Assembly (NCBI GenBank): GCA_004295015.1
Contig: SHNE01000026.1
Location: forward strand, 8,675 to 72,674
Reading direction: 5' to 3'
DNA from: Bacteroidota bacterium
Lineage (GTDB): Bacteria; Bacteroidota; Bacteroidia; AKYH767-A; 2013-40CM-41-45
DNA length: 64,000 nucleotides
This document shows positions 3,681-54,405 of the stretch, in pieces (the first letter of the stretch is position 1; each line of letters begins with the position of its first letter). Both the position numbers and the translations under genes were made by a program. The notes beneath the pieces are model-generated. The model saw only the letters and a list, made by a program, of their open reading frames with translations, had not been told where the DNA came from and ran no database searches.

Positions 3681-5003
3681 TTATCCCTTAAGGTCATTTT
3701 TTTCCAACTGCTCAATCAACCCGGCATAAATCCTGGTTGTTTCATATCGGCTGTATATCTCCATACCACTTTTTGGATAACGGTCACCCTTAACCCACTT
3801 ACTATAAATCTCCTCTATAAAAGTCGCAATTGCACTTTCGTTATCTCTGCTGAAAACCTCTGCTCTGTCAACGCTACTTAATAGTTTGGCTGCATCGCCA
3901 ACAGGATTTCCAAGAGCAAGTATAGGATTTCCGGTAGCTACATACTCCATTAACTTTCCTGAAATTAGAAGTTCACTCTCCTTGGTTTCGGCAAGTGAAT
4001 TCAATAAAAGATTTGCATTCAACATATATTGAATGGCTTCGTGATGTGGGACATATTCAATCTGAGTGAATGTTATATCCGGTAAAAACATCTTCACCTG
4101 ATTGATAATCGACGGAGATACTTTACCAACAAAAAGGAGATTTACTTTTTCCTGCATGCCTTCAAGCTTATCAAGAACTTTCCGTAAAGCATGTATAAAA
4201 GGTAAAATGGGTTGGTTTTCGCTGAGTATACCTAAATGAAGAATGTTGAATAGTTCCGACTCTTCCTTCTCGAGACCTTTGAATAATTCGGCATCATAGC
4301 CATTATATACAAAATGCACTTTTGCCTGCTCTTCAACCGAAAGTTTACTCCTTAATAATTTAGCCATCCCGGGGCCGATAGTCGTAATCATATCTGCTTT
4401 GGACAATACTTCATGCTCAAGACGAGCGTCCATTTTTTGGGCAAGAGAAGTCCTGTACATGTCTTTGTTATAGTAGGCCTCCGTCCAGGGATCCCTAAAA
4501 TCACAGATCCACTTGATATTGTTTTTCTTTTTCAACTTTAACCCGACAAGATGTGTTGAATGAGGTGTGCCATTGGTTATGACAATGTTTATCTTCTCGT
4601 TTTTAATCAGTTCTTTCGCTTTTAAATAAGCGTACCTGTTCCATCCTTTTCTGGCATCAGGAATAAAAAAATTTCCACGGATAAAGCGACTGATCTTTCT
4701 AAACAATCCGGGTTTCGACTCACCTGCAAATCCCTGTGGAATTTCAGCACGCTCATCTCCTCCAACCATTTTGGAATAAAATTTTAATGGCTCCATCGTA
4801 GAGGTGCGATAGACCTTCACATCCTTCACATGCTCTAAAAATTTCTTATCCAAAAACTTGTAAGATGCCTTTTCAGGATCAACCGTTAGAACGATAGGTT
4901 CTATTCCGAATTCTTTCAGATACCTTGAAAAATACATCCAACGCTGAACGCCACTCCCTCCGCTGGGCGGAAAATAATAAGTCAGAATGAGTACTTTTTT
5001 CAA
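3681..5003 (-). CDS. Glycosyltransferase family 4 (GT-B fold)
   Basis: 440 aa. It starts with YYFPPSGGSGVQRW, typical of GT4 N-termini. A C-terminal EX7E-like region is present (GKLMEYVATGNPIL). Confidence 0.7.
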   Translation of the reverse strand: MKKVLILTYYFPPSGGSGVQRWMYFSRYLKEFGIEPIVLTVDPEKASYKFLDKKFLEHVKDVKVYRTSTMEPLKFYSKMVGGDERAEIPQGFAGESKPGLFRKISRFIRGNFFIPDARKGWNRYAYLKAKELIKNEKINIVITNGTPHSTHLVGLKLKKKNNIKWICDFRDPWTEAYYNKDMYRTSLAQKMDARLEHEVLSKADMITTIGPGMAKLLRSKLSVEEQAKVHFVYNGYDAELFKGLEKEESELFNILHLGILSENQPILPFIHALRKVLDKLEGMQEKVNLLFVGKVSPSIINQVKMFLPDITFTQIEYVPHHEAIQYMLNANLLLNSLAETKESELLISGKLMEYVATGNPILALGNPVGDAAKLLSSVDRAEVFSRDNESAIATFIEEIYSKWVKGDRYPKSGMEIYSRYETTRIYAGLIEQLEKNDLKG

Positions 5004-10990: not shown

Positions 10991-11824
10991 ATGTCATTGT
11001 CAATAAGTGCTCAGGGATTTTCCTGGGAATACATTAAATTCGGAAAAGGGCCTGAAATACTGTTCGCCTTTCATGGCTTTGACAATGATGCAAATGACTT
11101 TAGGATATTCGAAAAAGCATTTGGTGAACGATACACTATTGTAGCGGTAAACTTATTTTTTCATGGAAAAAGTGATACGCCAACGCACCATGCAGAAGAT
11201 GAATTTACAGGTGAAATTCTGCAAGACTTATTCAACCGCCTCCTTTACGCAATTTCCTGCGAGCGATTCTCTTTTCTTGGTTTCAGTTTAGGGGGAAGAA
11301 TAATTATGGAACTGACGAAGCATTTTGCGCATCGAATCGATAGAATTTTACTTCTTGCTCCTGATGGATTAAAAATCAGTCCCTGGTATGTATTTATTAC
11401 CAATTCAGCTTTCGGCAAGAAACTCTTCAAACGAATCGTCTACAATCCTAATCGATTTCTCCGGCTATCGAAGTTCTTTTACAAAACAGGCATCATTGGT
11501 GAGAAGCAATACCTCTTCGCTCTAGCCAATTTTGACACCCTCGAGAAACGAAAAAAGGTATTTAATGTGTTGATGATTTTCCGAAACATTTTACCAAAAC
11601 CTGAAGATGTAGGGACTGCACTGAAAAAAAATCCGGTTCCTATTGACATTTACTTCGGGAGAAGGGATACCATTATAAGAGAAACCTTTGGCAAACGATT
11701 CAATAAAAAATCAGACTATGAAACGAAAATTCATTTACTGGATGCAGGCCATAATCTGATGAAAGACAGAATCGTTGAAGAGCTGATTCCCTGGTTGCAG
11801 GACAAAAAAAAAGTGTCAGAATAA
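10991..11824 (+). CDS. Alpha/beta-hydrolase fold protein
   Basis: An HGF oxyanion motif and a GFSLGG nucleophile elbow are present. The ORF is open from 10922, but the Met at 10991 gives the usual spacing ahead of the HG motif. Confidence 0.7.
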   Translation: MSLSISAQGFSWEYIKFGKGPEILFAFHGFDNDANDFRIFEKAFGERYTIVAVNLFFHGKSDTPTHHAEDEFTGEILQDLFNRLLYAISCERFSFLGFSLGGRIIMELTKHFAHRIDRILLLAPDGLKISPWYVFITNSAFGKKLFKRIVYNPNRFLRLSKFFYKTGIIGEKQYLFALANFDTLEKRKKVFNVLMIFRNILPKPEDVGTALKKNPVPIDIYFGRRDTIIRETFGKRFNKKSDYETKIHLLDAGHNLMKDRIVEELIPWLQDKKKVSE

Positions 11825-12013: not shown

Positions 12014-12221
12014 TGGAATTCCTTTGTTTAATCTTCAAAATCAGGACGGCAAAGGTAAATTATTTTTCCTTTTTACCAAAACATCCACACATTTTTAGCT
12101 TTTCTTTTCAAAATGATTGAATTTTCCGAAAATATTCATACTATACTTATATTCAATGCTTTAAAAATAGGCAAAACAGCCATTCAACTGAGTCCGGGCA
12201 CAAACAGAGAAAGAACGCATC

Positions 12222-12627: not shown

Positions 12628-13236
12628 TTAATGACTAAGGATTGCACTTTTAAAGCCAATCCTTTTCCTTGGCATTGGCGGAGGAGAAATCAATTGCTTG
12701 AGCGTCCTGAAAATTAGTTGTATTTCATTGTCGTGCTTACCGGCTAAAATTTCCTGAGAATTTATTTTCTTCTCCATTTGTTCTAACTTTATTAAAATGT
12801 CTTTATTCTTCAATAACATTTCACGAAGCTTAGCATACACTCTGATGATTTTCAAATTTACTTGAATCGCAGTTTCACTATTCAAAACTCCTGAGAGCAT
12901 GAGTACACCATAATCAGTAAATGCAAAAGGCCGCCCTCGTCTACCTCCCCAACTTGAACTTGAAGTCGCAAATTGCGACTTCAAGTTTTCGAACTCTTTC
13001 TTCGACAATTGAAACATAAAATCCTTGGGAAACCTTCCAGGATTTCGTTTCACCTGTTCATTTAATCTTTTCGTTTCTACTCCATACATTACAGCGAGGT
13101 CTTCATCAAGAATTACCTTTTGACCTCTGATGAAATGAATTTTACTCAGAACGAATGATTCATTTATTTGTGTCTTCTTACCGATTGGGTTAAACTTAAA
13201 TCTTTGACAAAAATGAATTAAATTAACAGGCAACAC
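12628..13236 (-). CDS. ORF6N-domain (KilA-N-related) protein with C-terminal coiled coil
   Basis: 202 aa. The IRGQKVILDEDLAVMYGVETKRLNEQVKRNPGRFPKDFMFQLS...GGRRGRPFAFTDYGVLMLSGVL region is the hallmark of Bacteroidota ORF6N-domain proteins. The true start may lie inside the ORF. Confidence 0.7.
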   Translation of the reverse strand: MLPVNLIHFCQRFKFNPIGKKTQINESFVLSKIHFIRGQKVILDEDLAVMYGVETKRLNEQVKRNPGRFPKDFMFQLSKKEFENLKSQFATSSSSWGGRRGRPFAFTDYGVLMLSGVLNSETAIQVNLKIIRVYAKLREMLLKNKDILIKLEQMEKKINSQEILAGKHDNEIQLIFRTLKQLISPPPMPRKRIGFKSAILSH

Positions 13237-29727: not shown

Positions 29728-30540
29728 ATGCAAAATTATTTACAGGAATTATTCGGGTTAAATGGAAAAACAGCCATTGTAACCGGTGGGGCGATGGGAA
29801 TCGGAAAAGGCATTGCCATTTCTCTGGCAAGTGCGGGGGCAACAGTCTTGATTGCCGACAGAGTTTCAACTGATGATGCCTCTGAAACGATGAAAGAACT
29901 TCGTTCAATCAATGCATCTTGTTCCTATTATCAAATTGATTTAACGGACATAAATAAACTACCCGCACTGGTAAAAAAAGCTGTCTCTGAATATGGAGCA
30001 CTGGATATTCTGGTGAACAATGCCGGCATCTACAAATACCAGGCGATGCTGGATATGAGTGAAGACATGTGGGACAAAGTCCTTGATTTGAATTTAAAGT
30101 CGGCCGTCTTCCTGTCAAAAGAAGCAGCTACTGCCATGAAGCAAAAAGGAAATGGAGGCCGGATAATCAATATAACATCGGTTGACGCCATGAAACCTGT
30201 TGCACCAAATCTTGCCCACTACGATGCATCCAAAGCAGCATTAAGAATGTTCACTAGATCATTTGCAAAAGAAGTAGCACCCTTTGGTATTCTGGTCAAC
30301 GATATAGCACCCGGTGGCGTTAACACACCCGGAACAAAACTGATTGCCGGAGAAAACCCAAGTGCAGAACAATTAAAAGCATTGGAAGCCCAAACTGCAG
30401 GCTTCATTCAAATGTTGCCAATAAAAAGATTTGGAGAACCTGAAGATATTGGAAGTGCAACTCTCTTCCTTGCAGGCAAGGCAGCAACTTATATAACGGG
30501 AACTACACTTGTAGTCGACGGCGGCATGCTGATAATGTAA
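29728..30540 (+). CDS. Short-chain dehydrogenase/reductase (SDR) family oxidoreductase
   Basis: 270 aa. The TGGAMGIGKG Rossmann motif, NNAG, and a Y-x-x-x-K catalytic dyad (YDASK) are present. Confidence 0.85.
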   Translation: MQNYLQELFGLNGKTAIVTGGAMGIGKGIAISLASAGATVLIADRVSTDDASETMKELRSINASCSYYQIDLTDINKLPALVKKAVSEYGALDILVNNAGIYKYQAMLDMSEDMWDKVLDLNLKSAVFLSKEAATAMKQKGNGGRIINITSVDAMKPVAPNLAHYDASKAALRMFTRSFAKEVAPFGILVNDIAPGGVNTPGTKLIAGENPSAEQLKALEAQTAGFIQMLPIKRFGEPEDIGSATLFLAGKAATYITGTTLVVDGGMLIM

Positions 30541-30653: not shown

Positions 30654-33600
30654 TTACATATTGCGTCGGTATTCCCCACCCACCTCAAACAAAGCATGTG
30701 TAATCTCACCAAGGGAGCAATACTTGGCTGCTTCCATCAATTGTTCAAAAATATTTTTATTATGAATGGCTGCCGCCTGAACTTTTGCAAGAATTTCTTT
30801 TGCTACTGCCCCATTACCTTTATGCAAGGACTCAAGCATCTGAATCTGATATTCCTTTTCTTCTTTTTCTGCACGAATAACTTCTCTTGGCAATACAGTA
30901 GGTGAACCTTTAGAACTTAGAAAGGTATTAACTCCTATTATAGGGAATTCTCCATTATGTTTTAAAGTTTCATAGTACAATGATTCCTCCTGGATTTTAC
31001 CCCGCTGATACATTGTCTCCATTGCACCTAACACCCCTCCTCTTTCAGTGATACGGTCAAACTCTTTGTAGACGGCTTCTTCAACCAATTCCGTCATCTC
31101 TTCAATAATGAACGACCCTTGCAGGGGATTTTCATTTTTAGCCTGACCTAATTCTTTATTTATAATCAGCTGAATGGCCATGGCACGTCGAACGCTTTCT
31201 TCCGTCGGTGTGGTAATTGCTTCATCGTATGCATTTGTGTGCAACGAATTACAATTATCGTATATAGCATACAAAGCCTGCAAAGTGGTACGTATATCAT
31301 TGAAGTCGATTTCCTGGGCATGAAGCGATCGACCGGATGTTTGTATGTGGTACTTGAGCATTTGAGAACGTTCGTTGCCGCCGTATTTTAATTTAATTGC
31401 TTTAGCCCATATTCGTCGCGCCACCCGACCGATGACTGCATATTCCGGGTCAATTCCATTGCTGAAAAAGAAGGAAAGGTTAGGAGCAAAATCATCTATA
31501 TGCATTCCCCTGCTCAGATAGTACTCAACATACGTGAATCCATTTGAAAGAGTAAAGGCTAATTGAGTGATTGGATTGGCTCCTGCTTCTGCAATGTGAT
31601 ATCCACTTATTGACACACTATAGAAATTACGAACCTTTTGCTCAATAAAATACTTCTGAATGTCGCCCATCATCCGAAGTGCGAACTCAGTACTGAAGAT
31701 GCATGTATTCTGTGCCTGATCCTCTTTTAAAATATCCGCCTGAACTGTACCTCTTACTTTGGTGAGTGTTTCGGTCTTTATCTTTTCATATACATCCGAA
31801 GGCAATACTTCATCACCGGTTACACCCAGGAGAAACAGTCCGAGTCCATTGTTCCCTTCGGGTAAATCTCCCTGATAGGAAGGACGCTTAACACCTTTCT
31901 CCTTATAAATACCGAGAATCTTTTTCTCAACTTCTTTTTCAAGTCCCTTCTCGTGAATGTAAATTTCACATTGTTGATCAATTGCAGCATTCATAAAATA
32001 GCCCAACAACATCGGTGCGGGACCATTGATAGTCATAGAGACTGATGTGCTTGGAGATGATAGATCAAAACCCGAATACAGTTTCTTTGCATCATCAAGA
32101 CAACATATATTTACACCGGAATTTCCGATTTTCCCGTAAATATCCGGGCGCCAATCAGGGTCATTTCCGTAAAGTGTTACGGAGTCAAATGCTGTTGATA
32201 GTCTTGCGGCAGGCATGCCTTTACTGACATAATGAAATCGCCTGTTCGTTCGCTCCGGTCCACCTTCACCGGCAAACATTCGTGTTGGATCTTCTCCTTC
32301 CCTTTTAAAAGGATAAATTCCTGCAGCAAATGGAAATTCTCCGGGAACATTTTCTGTAAGAATCCAATGCAATATCTCTCCCCAACTGTTATAAGATGGA
32401 GTTACCACTTTAGGGATTTGAGAATGAGAAAGTGATTCAGTGTGTGTTTGTATACTGATTTCCTTGTTGCGAACTTTGAACGTGTAGACATCGTCTTTAT
32501 ATAGCTTACGCTTCGCTTGCCATTCTTGCAACAATTTCCAGTTTATCGGATCAAGATGAAGTTTTTCATTCTCAAAAGTTTCCTGCAATCCTTTAATAAG
32601 TCGGTCCTTATCTACCAGTTTTCCTGCTTTAATTGCAGCCATTGATAGGTGCAGCGCATATAATTTTTCAGCGATATCACTTTGATCTCTGGCCCACTTT
32701 TCATAACTGCGATTCGTCTCCGTAATTTCGCTTAAGTAACGTGTACGATTCGGAGGGATGACATATATCTTTTCCGACATCTCTTTTGAAATCTTATATC
32801 CTGATTTCAAAGAAGTATTTGTTTTTTCAACAATGGTATTCATTACTGCCAGGTAAAGGTTATTCATACCCGGATCATTAAATTGAGAAGCGATAGTGCC
32901 AAAGACCGGCATAGACTCATCATCCTTGTCCCATAGTTGATGATTTCTCTTATACTGCTTCTTCACGTCGCGCAAGGCATCCAGTGCTCCCCGCTTATCA
33001 AATTTATTGAGTGCAATAAGATCAGCAAAATCGAGCATGTCAATTTTCTCCAACTGCGTGGCAGCACCATATTCAGGTGTCATTACATACAAAGAAACAT
33101 TACTATGATCCAGTATTTCGGTATCACTCTGACCAATGCCTGAAGTTTCTAAAATAACCAGATCATATTTTGCGGCTTTTAAAATATCGACTGCTTCGCT
33201 TACATGTTTTGAAAGTGCCAGATTACTTTGTCGGGTAGCAAGTGAACGCATATACACTCTGGGATTCCTGATGGCATTCATACGTATACGATCACCCAAT
33301 AATGCCCCACCTGTTTTTCTTTTTGATGGGTCAACAGAAACAACAGCAATAAATTTTTCCGGAAAATCAATAAGGAATCTTCTGACCAGCTCGTCAACCA
33401 GCGAAGATTTTCCTGAGCCTCCGGTACCTGTAATACCTAAGACAGGTGTCTTACTCTTCGAGGCCAATTCTTTCACTCTTTGCATTTCCGGTTTGGCCAT
33501 CTCCGGATTATTTTCGGCTGCCGAAATTAATGTTGCAATAGATCGCCAGTTTCTTTCCAGTAGATGTCCAACTTCCCCATTTAATTTTGCTCCTGTTGGA

Positions 33601-34034
33601 AAATCGCTTTTCATGAGCAGATCGTTAATCATACCCTGCAATCCCATATGCCGTCCGTCATCAGGATGATAAATCCTTGTAACGCCGTACTTCTGAAGTT
33701 CATCAATTTCGTCAGGCAATATTGTTCCTCCTCCTCCTCCAAATACTTTAATATGTCCGGCTCCTTTTTCGTTTAGGAGATCGACCATGTATTTAAAATA
33801 TTCCACATGTCCGCCCTGATAGCTCGTCATTGCAATGGCTTGTGCATCCTCCTGAATGGCACAATTCACCACTTCTTCAACGCTTCTGTCGTGACCTAAA
33901 TGAATCACTTCCGCACCACTCGATTGAATGATTCGACGCATGATATTGATAGCTGCATCATGACCATCAAACAGCGAGGCAGCCGTTACAATGCGGATTT
34001 TGTTTTTAGGCTTATAAACTTCGATTTTTTGCAT
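30654..34034 (-). CDS. icmF: Fused B12-dependent acyl-CoA mutase of the IcmF type (B12-binding domain, MeaB-like G-protein, mutase TIM-barrel)
   Basis: 1126 aa. The N-terminal B12-binding domain has the DxHxxG motif ([10 protein letters not shown]). The central P-loop GTPase ([16 protein letters not shown]) is MeaB-like. The large C-terminal region has the mutase substrate-binding barrel. The domain order matches IcmF. Confidence 0.8.
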
Positions 34035-34322: not shown

Positions 34323-37300
34323 GTGTTTCTAAAGGGCTTTCAAGGCCATTCTAACATCTCTTCAGTTTTGAAAAAGGTTTTTATTGGAGTACTTCTTATG
34401 CCGTTTTTGATTGAAACAGCATACTCGCAGCTGCTTATCAATGAGATTTGCCCTGCAAATATCACTGTTATCCAAAATTCAACGGGCAACTACTTTGACT
34501 ATATAGAATTATACAATGCAGGTACAGCTCCTTTAAACATTTCCGGATTTGCACTCAATGATGAACCTATAGTTGAATCAGAATCTATCCTGCCCGACTA
34601 CGTCCTGGCCGCCGGATCCAGACTTTTAATTTATGCTTCAGGCTCAAATGACGTTGACGTGGTTGATCATTATGAAATGCCTGTAGATGCCTATCAATCC
34701 TGGAGGTATATGGTAGGTTCTGCCGCACTTGATCCCAACTGGAGGGAATTGAATTTTGATGACAGCCAATGGTCTCTCGGCAATGGCGGTATCGGATATG
34801 GAGATGGCGACGATGCTACTGTAGTATCGCAAGAAATTTCTGTAATGATGCGTAAAACATTTACTATTACTGATTCTGCTTCAATCCTTGAAGCCATCTT
34901 AATGATGGACTTTGATGATGGTTTTAAAGCATACCTCAACGGAGTTGAGATTGCTTCTGTAAATATGTGGTCAGGCAATTTAGATTGGGACATATGGGCT
35001 AAGGATGCACATGAGGCGCAAATCTACCAGGGACTCCCTCCCGATTCTTTCTATATTGACAAAGATCTCCTGAAATCATTATTGATTAACGGAAAAAATG
35101 TTCTTGCAATTCAAACACACAATGTCGAGCCAAATTCCTCAGATCTTTCCTCCATTCCATTTTTAATTTTTGGGACAAAAGATTCTGCCTATAATTTCCC
35201 TGCTCCACCAACATGGTTCAGATCTCCGGACAACTCATCCCTCTACGTAAAATTCAAATTAGGAAGAAATGGAGAAAGCATATATTTATTTGATCCGAAC
35301 GGGAACATAATTGACCAACAGGTCTACCCACCTCTTGAGTCAGATCATTCCTATCAACGCAGCTATGACGGAGCAGGCAGTTGGTCTGTAAGTTACTCTC
35401 CAACACCTGCTGCTTCAAATAATTCCTTTGCATGTTACACCGGCTATACATTGAATCCTCTGTTTTCAATTGACGGTGGCTTTTATCCTTCTACACAATC
35501 TCTGGCAATAACGACAGCTCAAATTGGTGGAATTATTCGCTACACGAGCAACGGCGACATTCCAACTGCAACCGATTCCATTCTTAGTAGCACAATAAAT
35601 ATTTCGTCATCTTCAACCATCCGTGCACGAGTTTTTGCAAGCGGATACCTGCCGGGAAAAACAGTTACTCATACTTTTCTAATTAATGAAGTAAGCAAAC
35701 TACCTGTCTTTGCCTTAACAACCGATTCGTTAAATCTGTGGGACGAAAACACAGGAATATATGTACTAGGGCCGAATGCTGACAGCCTATGGCCACATTT
35801 CGGTGCAAACTTCTGGCAAGAATGGAAAAAACCTGTCACGGTAGAGTACTATGATAGATCAAAACAAAATGTTTTAAATTTTAATGCAGGTTTTGAAATT
35901 TACGGAAACTATTCAAGGGCAAAGGCACAGAAAAGTTTTGAAATACACCTGGAAGATCAATATGGCTTGCATGACATTCACTACCCACTAATCAATGACA
36001 AATCCTGGATAAGCGAATATGAAAACATAGTCCTACGTAACTCGGGTACCGACTGGAATGTTGTTCATTTCAGAGATGCGATGATGCAACGCATAATGAA
36101 AAATACGCATAGCAGTTATCTGGCAGCCGAATCTGTCCGAGTTTTTCTCAATGGAAAAGACTGGGGGGTTTATAATGTGCACGAGAAAAATAACCACAAA
36201 TGGGTAGAAACAAATTATGATTTAAAAAAATCAGAATTCTCCTTTTTAAGTGAGCAAGGAAGTAAAATAACTGCTGAAAACGGAACCGCCGATGAGTTTT
36301 GGAAACTTTATGAGTATGCTACAACTGAGGCTCAAGATTCAACTAAATATTACGAATACATCAATCAACACCTGGATTTAAAAAACTACGCTGATTATTT
36401 TATTGCTGAAACATATTACGATAACGGAGACTGGATTGGAGAATGGACCAATAATATTAAAATGTGGAAACCTAACAAAGAGGGATCACGATGGAAGTAT
36501 TTACTCCTTGATCTTGATTTCGGGCTTGGCCTTTTTGGAAACACGCAGGAGAACAGATTAGAGATGGCAAGAAATCCCATGGCTAACAGCAACTCTTCAA
36601 ACATGTTTGATGCCATTCTTAAAAACCCAATATTTAAAAGATATTTCATTAACCGGTATGCAGATCTAATAAACACCATTTACCTTCCATCAAGCATCAA
36701 TGCCGTTATGCATCAGTTTAAAGACTCGATGGAAACTGACATGAAATACCATTTCAACAAATGGGGCAGTGATTCGGCCACATGGAACAATAATATAGCA
36801 AGTATGATGAGCTACGTAGCTCAAAGGCCTTCGTTCATGAGATCAGTTTTGAATAATGACTTTTCTCTTGCCGGAGAAGTGACACTGACTTTAAATACAG
36901 TACCGGCCGGCTCAGGTCGCATTGAAATAAATACGATTACTCCCCTTAGTTATCCATGGAACGGAGTTTACTTTAACGGGAACCCTGTTACAATTACAGC
37001 AATTCCAAATCCCGGATACAGTTTCGATCATTGGACTGCCGGCAATATAAACACAAACGCAGGTGCAGATCAATTGACTGTCAACTTCACGGGCAACGAT
37101 CAAATTACGGCACATTTTACAGGTTCTGATGAAGATCCCCTCATCAACATAAGTGAATTCAACTACCATTCAGATTCTACTTTCGATTCAGGCGATTGGA
37201 TAGAGTTATTTAATTATGGATCATCAGAAATCGATCTTTCAGGATGGAAATTCAGAGATGAGGAGGAAAATCATGTGTTTACGATTCCTACAGGGACAAA

Positions 37301-42874: not shown

Positions 42875-42917
42875 CACCAAGATTTCTATGTTATAAACCA
42901 ACATAGAAATCTTGGTG
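42875..42917 (-). promoter_or_regulatory. Perfect 18-bp inverted repeat (caccaagatttctatgtt / aacatagaaatcttggtg, 7-nt loop) in the valS 5' leader
   Basis: Read directly from the sequence. It lies about 75-115 nt upstream of the valS start. On the valS transcript a U-run precedes the hairpin rather than following it, so it is not a canonical intrinsic terminator. Confidence 0.35.
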
Positions 42918-43074: not shown

Positions 43075-43317
43075 AACACTTTCTCTCAATCAACCTTAAA
43101 ATGGAATATTAATCGCTCTCCAAAGAGATTCATGTTCCAATTATCAAATGAGGAATGTCTTTTTTTGATATCACAAACTGTGACATCAAAAAAAGAAAAA
43201 AGAGGTGGGAGACGAAAACCAGCAATGGCCTTTACAGAACATGGAGTCACCATGCTTACCAGCATTTTAAAAAGTCAAAAGGCACAAAGTCCGCAAAGAT
43301 TTTCTCCGAAATTATAA
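43075..43317 (+). pseudogene. Remnant of an ORF6N-domain gene (C-terminal half of the domain only)
   Basis: The frame open from 43075 translates to ...LKWNINRSPKRFMFQLSNEECLFLISQTVTSKKEKRGGRRKPAMAFTEHGVTMLTSILKS. This aligns with [63 protein letters not shown] of the intact paralogue at 12628-13236. The N-terminal IRGQ...half and the C-terminal coiled coil are absent. Confidence 0.5.
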
Positions 43318-43515
43318 CTGATTCATACCATACTACAAGCCACTTGTGTACATAATGATCCTTGCCTTTCCTTGCATGCGTGGCCTTGGTAATTTTCTGA
43401 AAATTGAAACCGAAAGACAATGCATTTCATTTTTGCTTTCAGCACAGACAACTAAAAATCTAAAATTGAAGGTTAAAATCTTTAAATTGCACTTATGTAT
43501 TGAACACGGCTACCT

Positions 43516-44871
43516 ATGAAATTTAAAAGTATCAATCCCTTTAACGGAGATGTTCTTGCGACCTATGAAGAACAGGACGAGAAATCTGTATTAAATACTT
43601 TATCAAAATCACAAAAAGCATATCAAGGCTGGAGGAAGACGAGTGTGACTGATCGTACTTCCATGATGAAAAAGGCAGCCAAGGTACTTCGGGACAATGC
43701 TGAAGAGTATGCAATGATGATCACACTCGAAATGGGAAAACCCATTACTGAATCGAGAGCAGAAGTGAATAAATGCGCCTGGGTCTGTGATTATTATGCA
43801 GATAATGCAGCTGAATTTCTAAAAGATGAAATCATCAAAACAGATGCTCAGCAAAGCTTTGTCAGACATGATCCCATAGGAGGAATACTGGCCATCATGC
43901 CATGGAATTTTCCATTCTGGCAAGTGTTCAGATTTGCTGCTCCTACTCTTATGGCAGGTAATGTCGGACTACTCAAGCATGCATCAAATGTTTTTGGCTG
44001 CGCAAAACAGATAGAAGAGGTTTTCATCAAAGCCGGCTTTCCTGAGGGAGTATTTCAAAATATTATTTTACATCATGACAAAACAGAAATGCTCATTTCA
44101 CATGAGGCGATTCGTGCAGTAACACTTACCGGCAGCGAAAGAGCAGGATCATCGGTAGCTTCCTTAGCCGGGAAATACATAAAGAAATCTCTTTTAGAAT
44201 TGGGAGGAAACAATTCTTTCATTGTTTTGGAAGATGCTGACATAGACAAAGCAGTTGAGACCGCATTAGTAGCACGAATGCTCAACTGCGGACAAAGTTG
44301 TATTGCTGCGAAAAGATTTATTCTAATCGGAGATGTTTACGAAAAATTCACAAAGAAATTTATTGAATCAGTGACCAAATTAAAATCAGGTGATCCGCGC
44401 GATGAATCCACTATGGTAGGAACACTAGCACGTAAAGATCTGGCAGACGAACTGCAGGATCAAATGTCAAGATCAATAAAAGCAGGTGATCAATGATTGT
44501 ATGGGGGAAAACAAAACGGTGCTTACCATGAACCTACAGTTCTTGGAAATGTTGTACCCGGCATGGCCACCTTTGACGAAGAGACTTTCGGGCCATTGGC
44601 ATCAATGATCAGAGCCAAAGACATCAATGAAGCAATATCACTTTCTGAAAATTCGAAATTTGGTTTAGGCGTCACCCTCTGCACAAGTAATATTGAAAAA
44701 GGACTTGCTCTTGCAGAACATTTTAGCGATGGAGCTTATTTCATCAATGAATTAGTGAAGTCAGATCCTCGCCTTCCATTTGGTGGTGAAAAAACATCGG
44801 GCTTTGGAAGAGAGTTAGCAAGAGACGGGATGATGGCTTTCATAAACAGGAAAACTGTTTATGTAAAATAA
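43516..44871 (+). pseudogene. NAD(P)-dependent aldehyde dehydrogenase (succinate-semialdehyde dehydrogenase-like) interrupted by one in-frame TGA at 44494-44496
   Basis: The ORFs 43516-44496 and 44497-44871 are in the same frame and abut across a single TGA. Together they give a full-length ALDH of about 451 aa with catalytic Glu (LELGGNNS) and Cys (GQSCIAAKR) motifs. The stop falls where homologues have a hydrophobic residue (GA-x-V-V-x-GG). Confidence 0.6.
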
Positions 44872-49122: not shown

Positions 49123-50961
49123 ATGAAAAATTATTTATTATTTCTGACCCTGATATTCAGTGCACCGGTTTTTTCAACAACTACGAGTGTCACAAGTTTA
49201 GGTGATGCAGGTACAGGTTCCTTAAGGGAAATCATCAACACCGCCACAGCAGGTGATACAATCGACTTTTTAGTTGCCGGAACAATCACTTTATCCGGCG
49301 GTGAAATTATTATTAATAAAGACCTTGTTATCCTATCTTCCGGACCTGCAAATCTGACATTGAGCGGAAACAGCAGCAACAGAATACTAAACATAACCGG
49401 AGGCAATGTATTCATCAGCAGTGTTTCTTTCGAGAATGGTGTTTTAAGCGGATCAGGTGGCGCAATCCAAAACTCTTCTCCGGATACGGTCACAATTGAA
49501 AAAAGCGTATTCAATTCCTGTGCTGCCGGTATTGATGGTGGTGGAATAAAAAATACGGGTATGTTTTTAAGAATAATTGACTGCACATTCACCAACAACC
49601 ATGCAGGTTTTGACGGTGGTGGCTTATATAGCAGCACAGGTTTGGTAACAATAATCGGCTCTACATTTAATGGAAACAGCTGTTCGATTTCCGGAGCAGG
49701 TATCAGGACGGTCGGCGGTACCTGCAAACTAATTAACAGCACTCTTTCAGGAAATAATGCAACAGTAAGTGGTGGTGGATTTGAGGGAATCCTAGATATT
49801 ATGAATAGTACGATCACGGAAAATAATTCTCAGAATGGAGGTGGTGCAAAAACCACAGGGGCGGTTTTTCAAAATACAATTGTATACAACAATCATGTTT
49901 CCGGTAATAGCCCTGATATTGCAGGTCCAATAAACTCTAACGGAAATAATATATTCGGTGATACATCAGGATGTAGCGGTGCGATTTTCAGCGATCTCAT
50001 TAATATCAATCCAATGCTGGATATCTTAGGCCTAAATGGAGGTTATACCGCCACCCATGCAATAATGAGTACAAGTCCGGCTATTGATGCAGGAACCTGT
50101 CTGGGTGCACCATCAACAGACCAAAGAGATATAAATCGTGTTGGCTTTCCTGATATTGGAGCATATGAATTTGGTGGCACACCATTCGTTATAAATCAAA
50201 TATCAGAATCGATTTGCAACGGAGATGTATATGTTTTTGGCAACCAAAACCTGGATACGGCAGGTGTATATATGGAAACTTTTCAAACATTGGCTGATTG
50301 TGATTCAACAGTTGAGCTCACTCTAAGCATTAAACAAATCTATAATGAAACTGCCAACGCCACGATCTGCATAGGTGACTCCTTAATTTTCGGATCACTG
50401 ACACTCCTTAGTTCAGGTACTTATACTGAACAATTTTCAAGTTCATTAAATTGCGATTCAACGGTGGAGTTAACTTTGACAGTAACAGAACCCGACATTA
50501 CAGTAAGTCAAAGCGGCAAAACATTGAGTGCGGCCGGAACTGCAGAATCCTATCAATGGATCGACTGCAACACAAATCAGATAATACCCAATGACACAAG
50601 CCGTGTATTTATTGCACTTGCTAATGGTCAATATGCAGTGATAGTTACTGAGAATGGCTGCTCTGATACATCAGCCTGCTATAATGTGACTACGGTCGGT
50701 ATTGCAACAGAAAATTTTTCATCAGGAATTTCAGTCTATCCTACAATGGTAAAAAGTAAGACTTCGGTACGATTCATCGAGTCTCAAAAATTTGTCAACA
50801 TAATATTGATGGATATAAGCGGCAGAGAAATTCACAGAGAGAAATATTCAGAAACAAACACATTAACTCTTGATCTCAGCATTTGCAAGCCCGGAAACTA
50901 TTTTATCCAAGTGGAATCAGGAGAGAAAAACAGCATTCATCGGGTAGTTAAAATAGAATAA
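49123..50961 (+). CDS. Right-handed parallel beta-helix protein with Pmp-type (GGA[IL]...FxxN) repeats and a T9SS type A C-terminal domain
   Basis: 612 aa with a signal peptide. LGDAGTGSLREIINTA is an N-terminal motif. Repeats GGAIQNS/IDGGGIKNTG/FDGGGLYSS/SGGGFEG alternate with F-x-x-N. The C-terminus SVYPTMVKSKTSVRF...GNYFIQV is a T9SS C-terminal domain. Confidence 0.7.
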   Translation: MKNYLLFLTLIFSAPVFSTTTSVTSLGDAGTGSLREIINTATAGDTIDFLVAGTITLSGGEIIINKDLVILSSGPANLTLSGNSSNRILNITGGNVFISSVSFENGVLSGSGGAIQNSSPDTVTIEKSVFNSCAAGIDGGGIKNTGMFLRIIDCTFTNNHAGFDGGGLYSSTGLVTIIGSTFNGNSCSISGAGIRTVGGTCKLINSTLSGNNATVSGGGFEGILDIMNSTITENNSQNGGGAKTTGAVFQNTIVYNNHVSGNSPDIAGPINSNGNNIFGDTSGCSGAIFSDLININPMLDILGLNGGYTATHAIMSTSPAIDAGTCLGAPSTDQRDINRVGFPDIGAYEFGGTPFVINQISESICNGDVYVFGNQNLDTAGVYMETFQTLADCDSTVELTLSIKQIYNETANATICIGDSLIFGSLTLLSSGTYTEQFSSSLNCDSTVELTLTVTEPDITVSQSGKTLSAAGTAESYQWIDCNTNQIIPNDTSRVFIALANGQYAVIVTENGCSDTSACYNVTTVGIATENFSSGISVYPTMVKSKTSVRFIESQKFVNIILMDISGREIHREKYSETNTLTLDLSICKPGNYFIQVESGEKNSIHRVVKIE

Positions 50962-50976
50962 TCGCATTTCCTGGAA

Positions 50977-51012
50977 TAAAAAAAACCACGACGAATAGCC
51001 GTGGTTTTTTTT
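50977..51012. terminator. Bidirectional rho-independent terminator between convergent genes
   Basis: An A8 run precedes a ccacg/cgtgg stem (50986-50990 pairs with 51000-51004) with a 9-nt loop, followed by a T8 run. It is symmetric, so it can terminate transcripts from both strands. Confidence 0.6.
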
Positions 51013-51030
51013 ATTCCATAGAAAGAGATA

Positions 51031-51474
51031 TTATTTCCGGGTTCCTTTAATCTCACTATAAATTTCGTCGCCATGATGATTGAAGTGTTTACTCCACATT
51101 TTGTCATAGGGCGCACGGGCTTTCTTGTCGGGCCAGAGAGCTTTTTCAGTGGCATCGTCTATTTCAAAAGCGGCTTCCATGTCTGTCAGACTTTTGTACT
51201 CCATAATGTAGACATACTCCCTGCTATCACCGGAAAAAAAGTGCGACATGGTACGTGCACTGAGTAGTTTAGGGTTTTTCATGGCTACATTTTCATGATA
51301 ATAGCGCACGAGAGAATCGGCTTGCGCTCTGTCGATGTCCGGACCTGTATTTCGTACCCAGGTTTGAACTACGAAAATATGCGGCGCTTCCTCCTCTTGT
51401 GCAAAGACAGAGAACGATCCACAACAAGTAAATACAGCAACTACAGCTGCGAAGAGTAATTTTTTTGTTTTCAT
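51031..51474 (-). CDS. Hypothetical secreted protein
   Basis: 147 aa with a signal peptide (MKTKKLLFAAVVAVFTCCGSFSVFAQ). No recognised family. Confidence 0.45.
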   Translation of the reverse strand: MKTKKLLFAAVVAVFTCCGSFSVFAQEEEAPHIFVVQTWVRNTGPDIDRAQADSLVRYYHENVAMKNPKLLSARTMSHFFSGDSREYVYIMEYKSLTDMEAAFEIDDATEKALWPDKKARAPYDKMWSKHFNHHGDEIYSEIKGTRK

Positions 51475-51661
51475 GTTTTAGGTTTTTAGTTAAACAATAT
51501 AATAAGAACTTTAAGCCTAAATTAGTCATTAACTTAATACCGGGTGAAATCTCTCCATATTTCTTAATTTAAAATTCAACAAAGTATATTCATATAAATT
51601 GTTCAAATAATATAATAATACCGGTCATTTTGGGAAGAAATAATTGTGTACCTTTTCTACC

Positions 51662-53479
51662 ATGAAAAAATGTATCCTTCTATTGGCAACTTATTTTGTT
51701 GCCACTACTCTTTATGGTCAAACAATTCCCTCTAACCGCATCAGTACATGGAGTGAGACGGGATATGGCGATAGCATTCCGGAACCGGGCAACATTGTTG
51801 ATGTAATGAACTTCGGAGCAGTTGCAGATGGTATTGCTGACGACTACGCTGCCGTGAACGCAGCCATAAATTCACTAGGCGGAATGCAGGGCGTAGTTTA
51901 TTTTCCTCCCGGAATATATAAGATAGGTGCAAGTATTAATCTACCCGATAGTGTCGTTCTTCGAGGTGCCTCATCTGATTCCACTCATTTAAAATTTGAT
52001 TTGCAAGGTGCTGTTGGAAATTGTATTAATATAACCGGATCTATCTCAGGGCCATTTGATACAATTGTAGCTGCGTTCCGTGGTACTAGTCATATCAGCG
52101 TTTTGGATCCGCTGCCTTACCAACCAGGAATGTACCTGGAATTGATGGAGGATAATGGCTCCTGGGACACTCAGCCTGTCTCCTGGGCTGATAATTCCGT
52201 AGGTCAGATAGTGAAAATTGTAAGTATTACTCCATCCGGAGTAGGAGCCGCTCTCGAAACACAAAGCCCGATTCGAGCAGACTATGGAAGTGGATGGGGA
52301 ACCAATGCACGCATCCGAATAATTAATCCTGCACGGGAAGTTGGTATTGAATGTCTTCAAATAAGCAGAGCTGACAGTGTACATACCGGGGTTTGTTTTA
52401 ATATATATTTCAACTACGCGGTTCATTGCTGGATACGCGGTGTAGAAAGCTCTAAAAGTATTGGCAGTCATGTTGAAATCGATGCTTCCTCGAGGATAAC
52501 AGTTACCGGAAGCTATTTTCATCATGCCTATGAATACGATGGTGCTTCGACACATGGTTATGGAATAACATTATTCAATCATACGGGAGAATGTAGAGTA
52601 GAAAATAATATCATGAAACACTTGAGACATTCTTTTTCATTTCAGGCCGGCGCAAACGGAAATGTGAATGCATACAATTACAGTCTTGAACCGAACAGAT
52701 CGGAAGTTCCAGCGGATGCAGGAGCTGATATTTCCATGCACGGACACTTTCCTTTTGCAAATCTTTTCGAAGGAAACATTGTTCAGACTATTCAAATCGA
52801 TCAGACATGGGGACCAAGCGGACCTTACAATACTTTTTTTAGAAATCGGGCTGAACTTTATGGAATACTTATGTCTTCGGGAACAGTCGAAAGCAATGAG
52901 CAGCATTTTGTCGGGAATGAAGTAACGAGCACCGTAATTTTCACCGGAAACTATATCCTTGCCGGTACCGGTCATATAGAATTTGGAAATATGATAAGAG
53001 GAGTACTTACTCCTGCCGGCACTACTCCACTTACGGAATCATCCTATTATTTGACGGCAGCACCGGGCTTTTGGGGAAGCACAGCAAGCTGGCCATCTAT
53101 AGGAATTCCGAACAGTCCGGGTTCAGGCACAAATCCGGCTAAAGCCAGATACCTAGCCGGTGCATCCATGACTGTTTGCAGAGAAGACTTTACAACCGGC
53201 ATCCCTGCAATCCTTCCAAGCCAAAATGTTTATAGTATTTCACCAAATCCAATCAAGCAAGAACTCAACATCTATTCTTCAGGTCAGAATAAAGAATCCG
53301 TTGAAATTTATTGCCATGATATCAGTGGAAGATTGGTATTTATAAAAGCAATCACATTGAATCCGGGAAGAAATGAGATCAACTTAAACTCTTCTGTAAA
53401 ACTTCAAAATGGAATATATCTGCTAACGATTACATCAGAAAACATCATTCAAAAATTGAAATTGATTAAGCAGGAATAA
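51662..53479 (+). CDS. Pectate-lyase-superfamily (right-handed beta-helix, PL3/GH28-related) protein with a T9SS type A C-terminal domain
   Basis: The N-terminal motif VDVMNFGAVADGIADDYAAVNAAI matches the [FGA]-x-GDG-x-x-DD-x-x-A-[IF] start of pectate-lyase-superfamily proteins. The C-terminus VYSISPNPIKQELNIY...GIYLLTI is a T9SS C-terminal domain. The ORF is open from 51644, but MKKCILLL at 51662 is a better signal peptide. Confidence 0.65.
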   Translation: MKKCILLLATYFVATTLYGQTIPSNRISTWSETGYGDSIPEPGNIVDVMNFGAVADGIADDYAAVNAAINSLGGMQGVVYFPPGIYKIGASINLPDSVVLRGASSDSTHLKFDLQGAVGNCINITGSISGPFDTIVAAFRGTSHISVLDPLPYQPGMYLELMEDNGSWDTQPVSWADNSVGQIVKIVSITPSGVGAALETQSPIRADYGSGWGTNARIRIINPAREVGIECLQISRADSVHTGVCFNIYFNYAVHCWIRGVESSKSIGSHVEIDASSRITVTGSYFHHAYEYDGASTHGYGITLFNHTGECRVENNIMKHLRHSFSFQAGANGNVNAYNYSLEPNRSEVPADAGADISMHGHFPFANLFEGNIVQTIQIDQTWGPSGPYNTFFRNRAELYGILMSSGTVESNEQHFVGNEVTSTVIFTGNYILAGTGHIEFGNMIRGVLTPAGTTPLTESSYYLTAAPGFWGSTASWPSIGIPNSPGSGTNPAKARYLAGASMTVCREDFTTGIPAILPSQNVYSISPNPIKQELNIYSSGQNKESVEIYCHDISGRLVFIKAITLNPGRNEINLNSSVKLQNGIYLLTITSENIIQKLKLIKQE

Positions 53480-53543
53480 ATCAAGTCATACATAGGTTTG
53501 GTCGAGCTGACATTCGCCTCCTATATGCAAATCCGCTTTTATA

Positions 53544-53658
53544 CCACGAATGCACCTGTAAAAGCTCCGAAATTTTGTGATCGCTAAAGCAATTTGACGA
53601 AAATAAATTTAAAACTGATGCGCAAGAATTAAATGCGACGTCATTCGTGCATTCCTGG
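53544..53658. repeat. Solo copy of the structured inverted-repeat element (ccacgaatgcac ... gtgcattcctgg)
   Basis: It lies in the convergent intergenic region between 53479 and 53737. The arms are reverse complements with one mismatch and enclose about 90 nt. It shares the cacgaatgcac/attcgtgcattc motif with the elements at 17185-17295 and 17863-18460. Confidence 0.6.
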
Positions 53659-53736
53659 CAAAAAAATTTCAATCAGCTCCTGAACGACTATCATCTGCAA
53701 ATAGTAGCACGTGTGTATGCAGTTCTGACCTCTTCA

Positions 53737-54405
53737 TTAATTCATTGAAGAGTTTCCTGAGTGCTCGGGCTCCCGTGCAGAACCTTTTTTGCGATTAAAG
53801 GTGGTTTTAAAAACAAGATCCCAAAATGCAGAACTAACCCCAAAACCGTTGTGCATATCCTGATAATGATGCAACATGTGATGCTGCTTTAATTTCAACC
53901 AAAATTTACTCTTGAAATTGTAGTGATGAATAGCATAGTGAGTCATGTCATAAAAGAGATATCCTGACAGGAATCCCACAAAGAAAGGAGCCACATTAAT
54001 CGGCCCAAGCAGCGCACGAAATAAAAAATAAAAGAGTATAGCCAATGGAATACTGACTGTCGGAACCATCACCAGACGTTTACTGTCGCTCGGAAAATCA
54101 TGGTGCACACCATGAAAAATAAAATGAATCCTGGCCCCTATTTTGCCCGGTGCTTTCCAATGAAACACGAAGCGATGCAGCATATACTCAGTAAAGGTCC
54201 AGACGCAAATACCCAAAATTGTAAAGACGAAAAAGTTTTGGAACCCTAATCCATGAATCCGGAAGCTTTGGAAAATAAAATAAATGATTACCGGAATATA
54301 AATAAAAAGCGGCACAGAGAAGTGGATTCTCGATAATCCCTCAAGCAAATTATTGCTGAACATCCTCTCGGTTTGATCCTTATTGCTGATGAAGTTTTTT
54401 GCCAT
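53737..54405 (-). CDS. Sterol desaturase / fatty acid hydroxylase superfamily membrane protein
   Basis: 222 aa. His boxes HRFVFH, HGVHH and HHMLHH lie between TM helices. Confidence 0.7.
   Translation of the reverse strand: MAKNFISNKDQTERMFSNNLLEGLSRIHFSVPLFIYIPVIIYFIFQSFRIHGLGFQNFFVFTILGICVWTFTEYMLHRFVFHWKAPGKIGARIHFIFHGVHHDFPSDSKRLVMVPTVSIPLAILFYFLFRALLGPINVAPFFVGFLSGYLFYDMTHYAIHHYNFKSKFWLKLKQHHMLHHYQDMHNGFGVSSAFWDLVFKTTFNRKKGSAREPEHSGNSSMN

Follow-up and report, generated by a model that had tools for sequence, protein, structure and literature searches.

Does an aldehyde dehydrogenase (ALDH) gene that is interrupted by one in-frame TGA represent a recoded gene, a split enzyme, a young pseudogene or an error in the deposited sequence? 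The question is raised by a locus in a metagenome-assembled genome (MAG) of a Bacteroidota bacterium, which we analyzed within a stretch of 64,000 nucleotides of contig SHNE01000026.1 (the whole of this stretch is referred to below as the window; features are listed in Table 1). A first-pass annotation of the same DNA had proposed four explanations for the stop codon, namely a recent nonsense pseudogene, a sequencing error, a strain polymorphism and programmed read-through. Two kinds of explanation survived the present analysis, an error of sequencing or assembly and a nonsense or strain-private allele of recent origin, whereas programmed read-through found no support. We consider that the stop probably belongs to a local assembly or consensus error in the MAG, with a probability of roughly 0.65.

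Table 1. Coordinates of the features discussed (positions in the window) and public protein records identical to window proteins
Feature	Position	Strand	Remarks
Isolated MAG-private difference	3180	+	C>A, synonymous, at the C of a GGC; the only isolated one
Intact 202-aa ORF6N-domain paralog	12628–13236		
1126-aa methylmalonyl-CoA mutase fusion	30654–34034	−	TAH42230.1, 100% identical to the window protein
Patch B, MAG-private	35386–35397	+	35386 G>C, 35394 G>T, 35397 G>T; in a 1340-aa T9SS-sorted surface protein
Imperfect 43-nt palindrome	42875–42917		84% self-complementary
ORF6N-domain gene relic	43096–43284	+	Residues 62–123; 61-aa ORF upstream of ALDH is TAH42235.1 (EYC69_06285)
Succinate-semialdehyde dehydrogenase-like ALDH gene (Sad/YneI type)	43516–44871	+	451 codons, one in-frame TGA; intact allele is P0001
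Patch C, private three-substitution patch	44489–44495	+	44489 C>A, 44491 G>C, 44495 T>G; sole differences from contig L001 over 11,356 bp
In-frame TGA	44494–44496	+	Intact allele TTA (Leu327); Leu in 11/11 aligned homologs
Patch D, intergenic	53648–53660	.	Three substitutions and an A7/A8 homopolymer difference; observed only relative to the SRR274228xx contigs, which are more distant
ValRS			TAH42234.1, 100% identical to the window protein
rsmF-like protein			TAH42236.1 (EYC69_06295), 100% identical to the window protein
PKD-domain protein			TAH42245.1, 100% identical to the window protein

Extent and identity of the interrupted gene

Two open reading frames (ORFs), 43516–44496 (326 amino acids) and 44497–44871 (124 amino acids), abut in the same frame, and the window reads AAA GCA GGT GAT CAA TGA TTG TAT GGG at the stop. 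The pieces are consecutive on the Pfam Aldedh profile (PF00171), the first matching profile positions 8–331 of 461 (E=4.5e-89) and the second positions 337–461 (E=9.8e-31); joined, they give the full-length match of an ALDH superfamily member and align end to end with 451-residue homologs with zero indels. Thus, the region holds one ALDH gene, the frame of which is unshifted and is broken by a single stop. The first-pass annotation had described it in these terms, and its view that the concatenated product is a complete ALDH of ∼451 residues containing the catalytic motifs was equally borne out. The unbroken chain of ∼450 residues expected of the superfamily is interrupted at codon 327 in the window and is present in all eight other contigs from the population.

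The catalytic machinery of ALDHs comprises a nucleophilic Cys in the motif GQSCIAAKR, a general-base Glu in LELGGNN and an oxyanion Asn in PWNFP. All three motifs are located in the 326-residue piece, and the corresponding residues (C262, E228 and N131) are invariant columns among the aligned homologs. The 124-residue piece holds the invariant EETFGP and PFGGxKxSGxGRE segments. Truncation at residue 326 would remove part of the catalytic domain, and the shortened product is expected to have no activity.

With respect to function, the best NCBIfam models were NAD(P)-dependent succinate-semialdehyde dehydrogenases (SSADHs), all of which scored under their equivalog cut-offs (507 bits against a cut-off of 730 for the best match, NF006915, and 456 bits against 855 for NF010575). 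Because of these scores the gene is named here at the family level only. The nearest solved structures were those of the Synechococcus SSADH (4IT9/3VZ1, E=3e-125) and Escherichia coli Sad/YneI (8QMS), and judging from sequence relationships the substrate is probably succinate semialdehyde. The gene is monocistronic, with the divergently transcribed valS on one side and a convergent rsmF-like gene on the other, and gabT is absent from its vicinity.

The stop codon in the deposited record and in independent assemblies

Window proteins are 100% identical to the NCBI proteins of the MAG, which bear EYC69_ locus tags (examples in Table 1). No protein is recorded under EYC69_06290, the tag that falls between EYC69_06285 and EYC69_06295, from which we infer that it is the ALDH locus and that the gene is annotated as a pseudogene in the public record. 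An alteration of the window relative to that record was considered and ruled out, since TAH42231.1 carries the window variant at a second private patch (patch B, described below) and the gap in the locus tags fits an ALDH pseudogene. The window therefore reproduces the public record, and the lesions sit in the deposited MAG.

A protein search revealed an intact allele (P0001) of 451 residues, with 99% identity to the joined product, on seven Logan contigs. At the DNA level its gene differs from that of the window at three positions only, 44489, 44491 and 44495 (one Logan contig has an extra synonymous difference at 44079). The intact form, GCTGAATTA, appears in the window as GATCAATGA, which converts GCT GAA TTA (Ala-Glu-Leu) into GAT CAA TGA (Asp-Gln-stop); all three substitutions of this patch (patch C) are transversions and all three are nonsynonymous. 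Ala325 and Leu327 are both conserved in 11 of 11 aligned homologs. The first-pass annotation had proposed that a single transversion, from TTA to TGA, would produce the stop. The ancestral codon was correctly identified, as TTA is seen in all intact alleles and the aligned homologs have Leu at this site, but the single event is contradicted by two further transversions, 4 and 6 bp upstream of the stop change; at all other positions the gene equals the intact allele. An event that altered three bases within 7 bp differs in kind from a lone nonsense change, and calls for a different explanation.

All 14 fetched loci that cover the site, which represent eight distinct contigs from seven runs (SRR8466245, SRR8466246, SRR27422804, -816, -822, -827 and -829), contain the 40-mer of the intact allele and none contains the TGA 40-mer; elsewhere these contigs hardly differ from the window, with identity reaching 100% over 11.4 kb. 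When the neighboring rsmF-like protein was looked up, no other ALDH allele was seen on any contig found. In its Logan part, a collection of 15 billion proteins contained the ancestral version but neither the 326-residue product, nor the same product with the stop change alone (ending KAGAE), nor any of the three sense variants carrying part of the patch (D-Q-L, D-E-L and A-Q-L). A search using a 40-mer with the three variable positions left open retrieved neither allele from GTDB representative genomes or JGI metagenome contigs and is uninformative.

Private differences compared with natural polymorphism

To place patch C among the other variable sites, we listed all differences between the window and 28 fetched Logan loci, which together cover 58,321 of its 64,000 bases; contigs of the SRR84662xx runs cover 54,702 bp of the window. 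The window has the haplotype of SRR8466245 at every natural polymorphic site covered by that run except 30255. Within the SRR84662xx coverage, seven differences were private to the window, consisting of one single base and two triplets with spans of 7 and 12 bp.

The second triplet, patch B, lies ∼9 kb from the ALDH patch in a WCVSDAPTPAASN stretch, among the LTD and CotH Pfam matches of a 1340-residue LTD/CotH/T9SS surface protein. The window has TCTGTAAGTTACTCT where the intact form is TGTGTAAGTGACGCT, and the resulting changes (Cys>Ser, Asp>Tyr and Ala>Ser) are again all transversions and all nonsynonymous. The window variant of this protein was absent from the whole 15-billion-protein collection including Logan, in which the ancestral version was present, and TAH42231.1 is probably wrong at the three patch-B residues. 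As positions 50120–53738 are outside the SRR84662xx contig coverage, patch D was compared with SRR274228xx only, and it could be either a third MAG-private patch or natural variation.

The private differences were distinguished from the 62 natural polymorphisms in three independent respects. First, they are clustered: the probability of at least one triplet within 12 bp among seven random sites is ∼1.5e-5. Second, the ratio of transitions to transversions is 0:7 for private differences vs 39:23 for natural polymorphisms (Fisher p=0.0019). Third, the ratio of synonymous to nonsynonymous changes is 1:6 vs 36:17 (p=0.010). None of the private differences is an indel. A local assembly error would be expected to be confined to one assembly, to recur in that record and to depart statistically from natural variation; all of this was observed, with two triplets and one single change in 54.7 kb. 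Such a comparison of assembly-private differences with natural polymorphism, in spectrum, coding effect and clustering, provides a cheap flag for artefacts that requires no reads.

It should be noted that tight clusters, of two or three sites in 20–70 bp, also exist among the natural polymorphisms between samples (30501–30525, 11143–11176, 12109–12127 and 3756–3822), and clustering by itself is therefore no proof of error. In coding sequence the clustered natural sites are largely synonymous or at third codon positions. For example, the sites 30501, 30504 and 30525 (patch A) are shared with contig L019 and fully synonymous, and 11143, 11146 and 11176 are exclusively third codon positions and mostly synonymous. 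The natural clusters bear the footprint of variation filtered by selection, and the private patches look like the opposite. One reading is that the natural clusters are very short recombination tracts from diverged relatives, distinct from the MAG-private patches. An apparent regular spacing of ∼9.1 kb between patches vanished when more contigs were included and patch A proved to be a genuine synonymous polymorphism shared with L019.

Origin of the patch

Patch C is private to the deposited record, clustered, composed of transversions alone and unfiltered by selection, and independent assemblies read a sense codon in its place. That its cause is the assembly rather than the cell is our inference from this pattern. 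In the proposed course of events, GCTGAATTA would have been written as GATCAATGA, three wrong bases within 7 bp thereby entering one assembly, and patch B would be a second, equally odd product in another gene of the same record, ∼9 kb away. Several observations favor an assembly error: triple substitutions account for two of the three private events; both patches consist of transversions alone and show no filtering by selection; and no independent assembly has either patch, not even that of the run which otherwise shares the MAG haplotype. It is further favored by documented cases, since uncurated MAGs have been found to contain consensus stretches unsupported by reads. MAGs are reported to harbor local assembly errors that no read supports (for example, 13 in a genome of 1.13 Mb), through which wrong protein-coding sequences are spread into public databases (Chen et al., 2020, Genome Res 30:315; PMC7111523). 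On the other hand, a genuine low-frequency haplotype taken up by the assembler would give the same outcome in every test used here.

Some more specific sources of the patch were considered. The zero indels among the private differences indicate that they are not of the typical long-read error pattern. Each of the three private events has a GG[C/T] motif immediately on its 5' side (post hoc p ∼0.0015). In the sequence-specific errors of the Illumina platform, the miscalled base copies the preceding base (Nakamura, 2011; PMC3141275), and this source is not established by the motif, because the miscalled bases mostly differ from the preceding reference bases. The mutated sequence creates 9-mers that recur nearby (CAGGTGATC, at 97 bp upstream; ATCAATGAT, at 112 bp downstream), and GATCAAT is repeated 16 bp upstream. 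Mutation templated by a nearby repeat was nevertheless rejected as unsupported, since the observed triple ranks only third of the 64 base combinations, which is not significant, and nothing similar was seen for patches A and B.

The strongest competitor, which we regard as possible but clearly the less likely, is a real and very recent multi-nucleotide mutation. One event of error-prone synthesis or repair in a sub-lineage would have altered three positions within 7 bp and so inactivated the SSADH gene, and the MAG would have caught this minor or private haplotype; the gene would then be a brand-new pseudogene with a truncated, presumably inactive product of 326 residues. The stop is indeed present in the deposited record, in which the gene is evidently annotated as a pseudogene, and outside the patch no base separates the gene from the intact allele, an absence of decay that would fit a very young lesion. 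The all-transversion, unselected spectrum also fits fresh damage-type mutations, and a monocistronic gene between valS and the rsmF-like gene, with gabT not nearby, is plausibly dispensable. Multi-nucleotide events make up a small minority of spontaneous mutations. A biological origin would nevertheless require that two of the three private events in 55 kb were triple substitutions. Moreover, the lesion of a genuine pseudogene should be supported by reads or independent assemblies, and the allele is found in none of the eight contigs (seven runs), even in the run that otherwise matches the MAG haplotype, and is absent from the protein collection. If the patch is real, the gene is a routine young pseudogene and the wider interest lies only in the signature of multi-nucleotide mutation. 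In an extension that we consider improbable, a recurrent process in this wild Bacteroidota lineage, such as error-prone synthesis across clustered oxidative lesions, would produce bursts of three transversions within ∼10 bp, one of which has just inactivated the SSADH; in that case the MAG would have captured multi-nucleotide mutation in nature at a point when selection had yet to act.

Programmed recoding, by which read-through, selenocysteine insertion or a genetic code with TGA as a sense codon would yield the full-length enzyme, is effectively excluded. All that speaks for it is that the frame continues through the stop and that the 124 downstream codons are intact. However, the TGA is missing from all other population assemblies and from all homologs, which have Leu and not Cys, and recoding leaves the two flanking substitutions unexplained. 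Read-through in particular calls for a conserved stop in a leaky context; the stop here is private, and its TGA-T context is shared by five of the eight other window genes that end in TGA. These genuine terminators include those of valS and of a gene for 1424 residues. No other interrupted gene was seen: no other pair of adjacent ORFs in the same frame was apparent in the list of window ORFs of at least 120 residues, many of which are long and unbroken, contrary to a code in which TGA is sense (tables 4 and 25). As for selenocysteine, the UGA should be conserved and aligned with Cys or Sec, and 11 of 11 homologs have Leu and the nearest alleles TTA. No SECIS-like hairpin was detected 3' of the UGA, the 67 nt from the TGA folding at −12 kcal/mol vs a mean of −13.1 for shuffled sequences (z=+0.42), and the wider region of 181 nt was equally unexceptional relative to shuffles (z=−0.15). 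Neither tRNA genes nor matches to Rfam families were found in the 64-kb window. The first-pass annotation had taken a TGA common to close relatives, together with evidence of a full-length protein, as the sign of recoding, and none of the eight population contigs carries it; with normal TGA terminators in the window and no structure downstream, its suggestion of programmed read-through can be set aside.

A functional split enzyme, in which translation ends at the TGA and re-initiates at the adjacent TTG (TGATTG) and the two chains assemble into an active ALDH, is just as remote: although a TTG directly follows the stop and both catalytic residues are in the first piece, the downstream piece lacks a convincing independent start, as the first-pass annotation had remarked, no relative is so arranged (120 of the 120 homologs listed are single chains of 451–471 residues), the break falls inside the catalytic domain and parts EETFGP and PFGGxKxSGxGRE from the catalytic Cys and Glu, and conserved residues are altered by the Ala>Asp and Glu>Gln changes that come with the stop.

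Because the stop is private and a second lesion of the same kind lies nearby, the locus should not be read as a case of recoding or as the absence of SSADH; most likely, the SSADH gene of the organism is intact. The locus also serves as a caution, as a seemingly noteworthy in-frame TGA within a conserved enzyme gene proved to be a lesion confined to a single uncurated MAG.

Other features of the region

The 650-bp spacer upstream of the ALDH gene contains a relic of an ORF6N-domain gene, which is 49% identical to the intact paralog elsewhere in the window (tblastn E=2.6e-10) and whose short ORF is recorded as a hypothetical protein in the public MAG. This relic is a genuine old pseudogene fragment. 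An imperfect palindrome lies between it and valS, just upstream of the start of the long valS ORF (42867). Five SRR274228xx Logan contigs (including L003/L006, L004, L007 and L009) start at 43473, 43 bp upstream of the ALDH start, and the SRR84662xx contigs run through this position unbroken, which suggests a structural difference or a repeat boundary in the upstream spacer of the SRR274228xx sister population. In addition, the window encodes a protein of 1126 residues in which Pfam recognizes B12-binding, MeaB-type G-protein and methylmalonyl-CoA mutase domains in one chain, the architecture of fused IcmF-like acyl-CoA mutases; in the MAG it is annotated as methylmalonyl-CoA mutase.

Comparison with known systems

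Apart from the stop, the gene is that of a routine Sad/YneI-type SSADH. Compared with NAD(P)+-dependent enzymes of this type (4IT9/3VZ1, 8QMS and Salmonella YneI, 3EFV), residues 3–451 align to residues 5–456 of 4IT9, the length is similar (∼451–462 residues) and PWNFP, LELGGNN, GQSCIAAKR, EETFGP and PFGGxKxSG are all conserved. The window gene differs from them in the frame broken at codon 327, in the two adjacent conserved residues that are changed and in its sub-equivalog scores.

The lesion itself can be compared with three described situations. With bacterial selenoprotein genes (UGA plus SECIS), it shares an in-frame UGA inside an oxidoreductase gene; unlike them, the window site has homologs with Leu, no hairpin after the UGA and a UGA that occurs in no relative. 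A nonsense pseudogene of the 'internal stop' class annotated by PGAP is likewise full length but for one in-frame stop and, as is evidently the case here, has a locus tag without a protein, whereas in the window the stop is accompanied by two substitutions within 7 bp, no other decay is present and the allele was not found elsewhere in the population. The local assembly errors of MAGs (Chen et al., 2020; PMC7111523) resemble the present case in being short consensus stretches of one assembly within a coding gene, in an uncurated MAG with several patches. There they are defined by the lack of any read that perfectly supports the consensus; the window patches, compared here with assembled contigs, are pure substitutions that leave the length unchanged. 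Nothing in these comparisons suggests a new mechanism, and the lesion is either a MAG artefact of the kind already described or a routine nonsense pseudogene.
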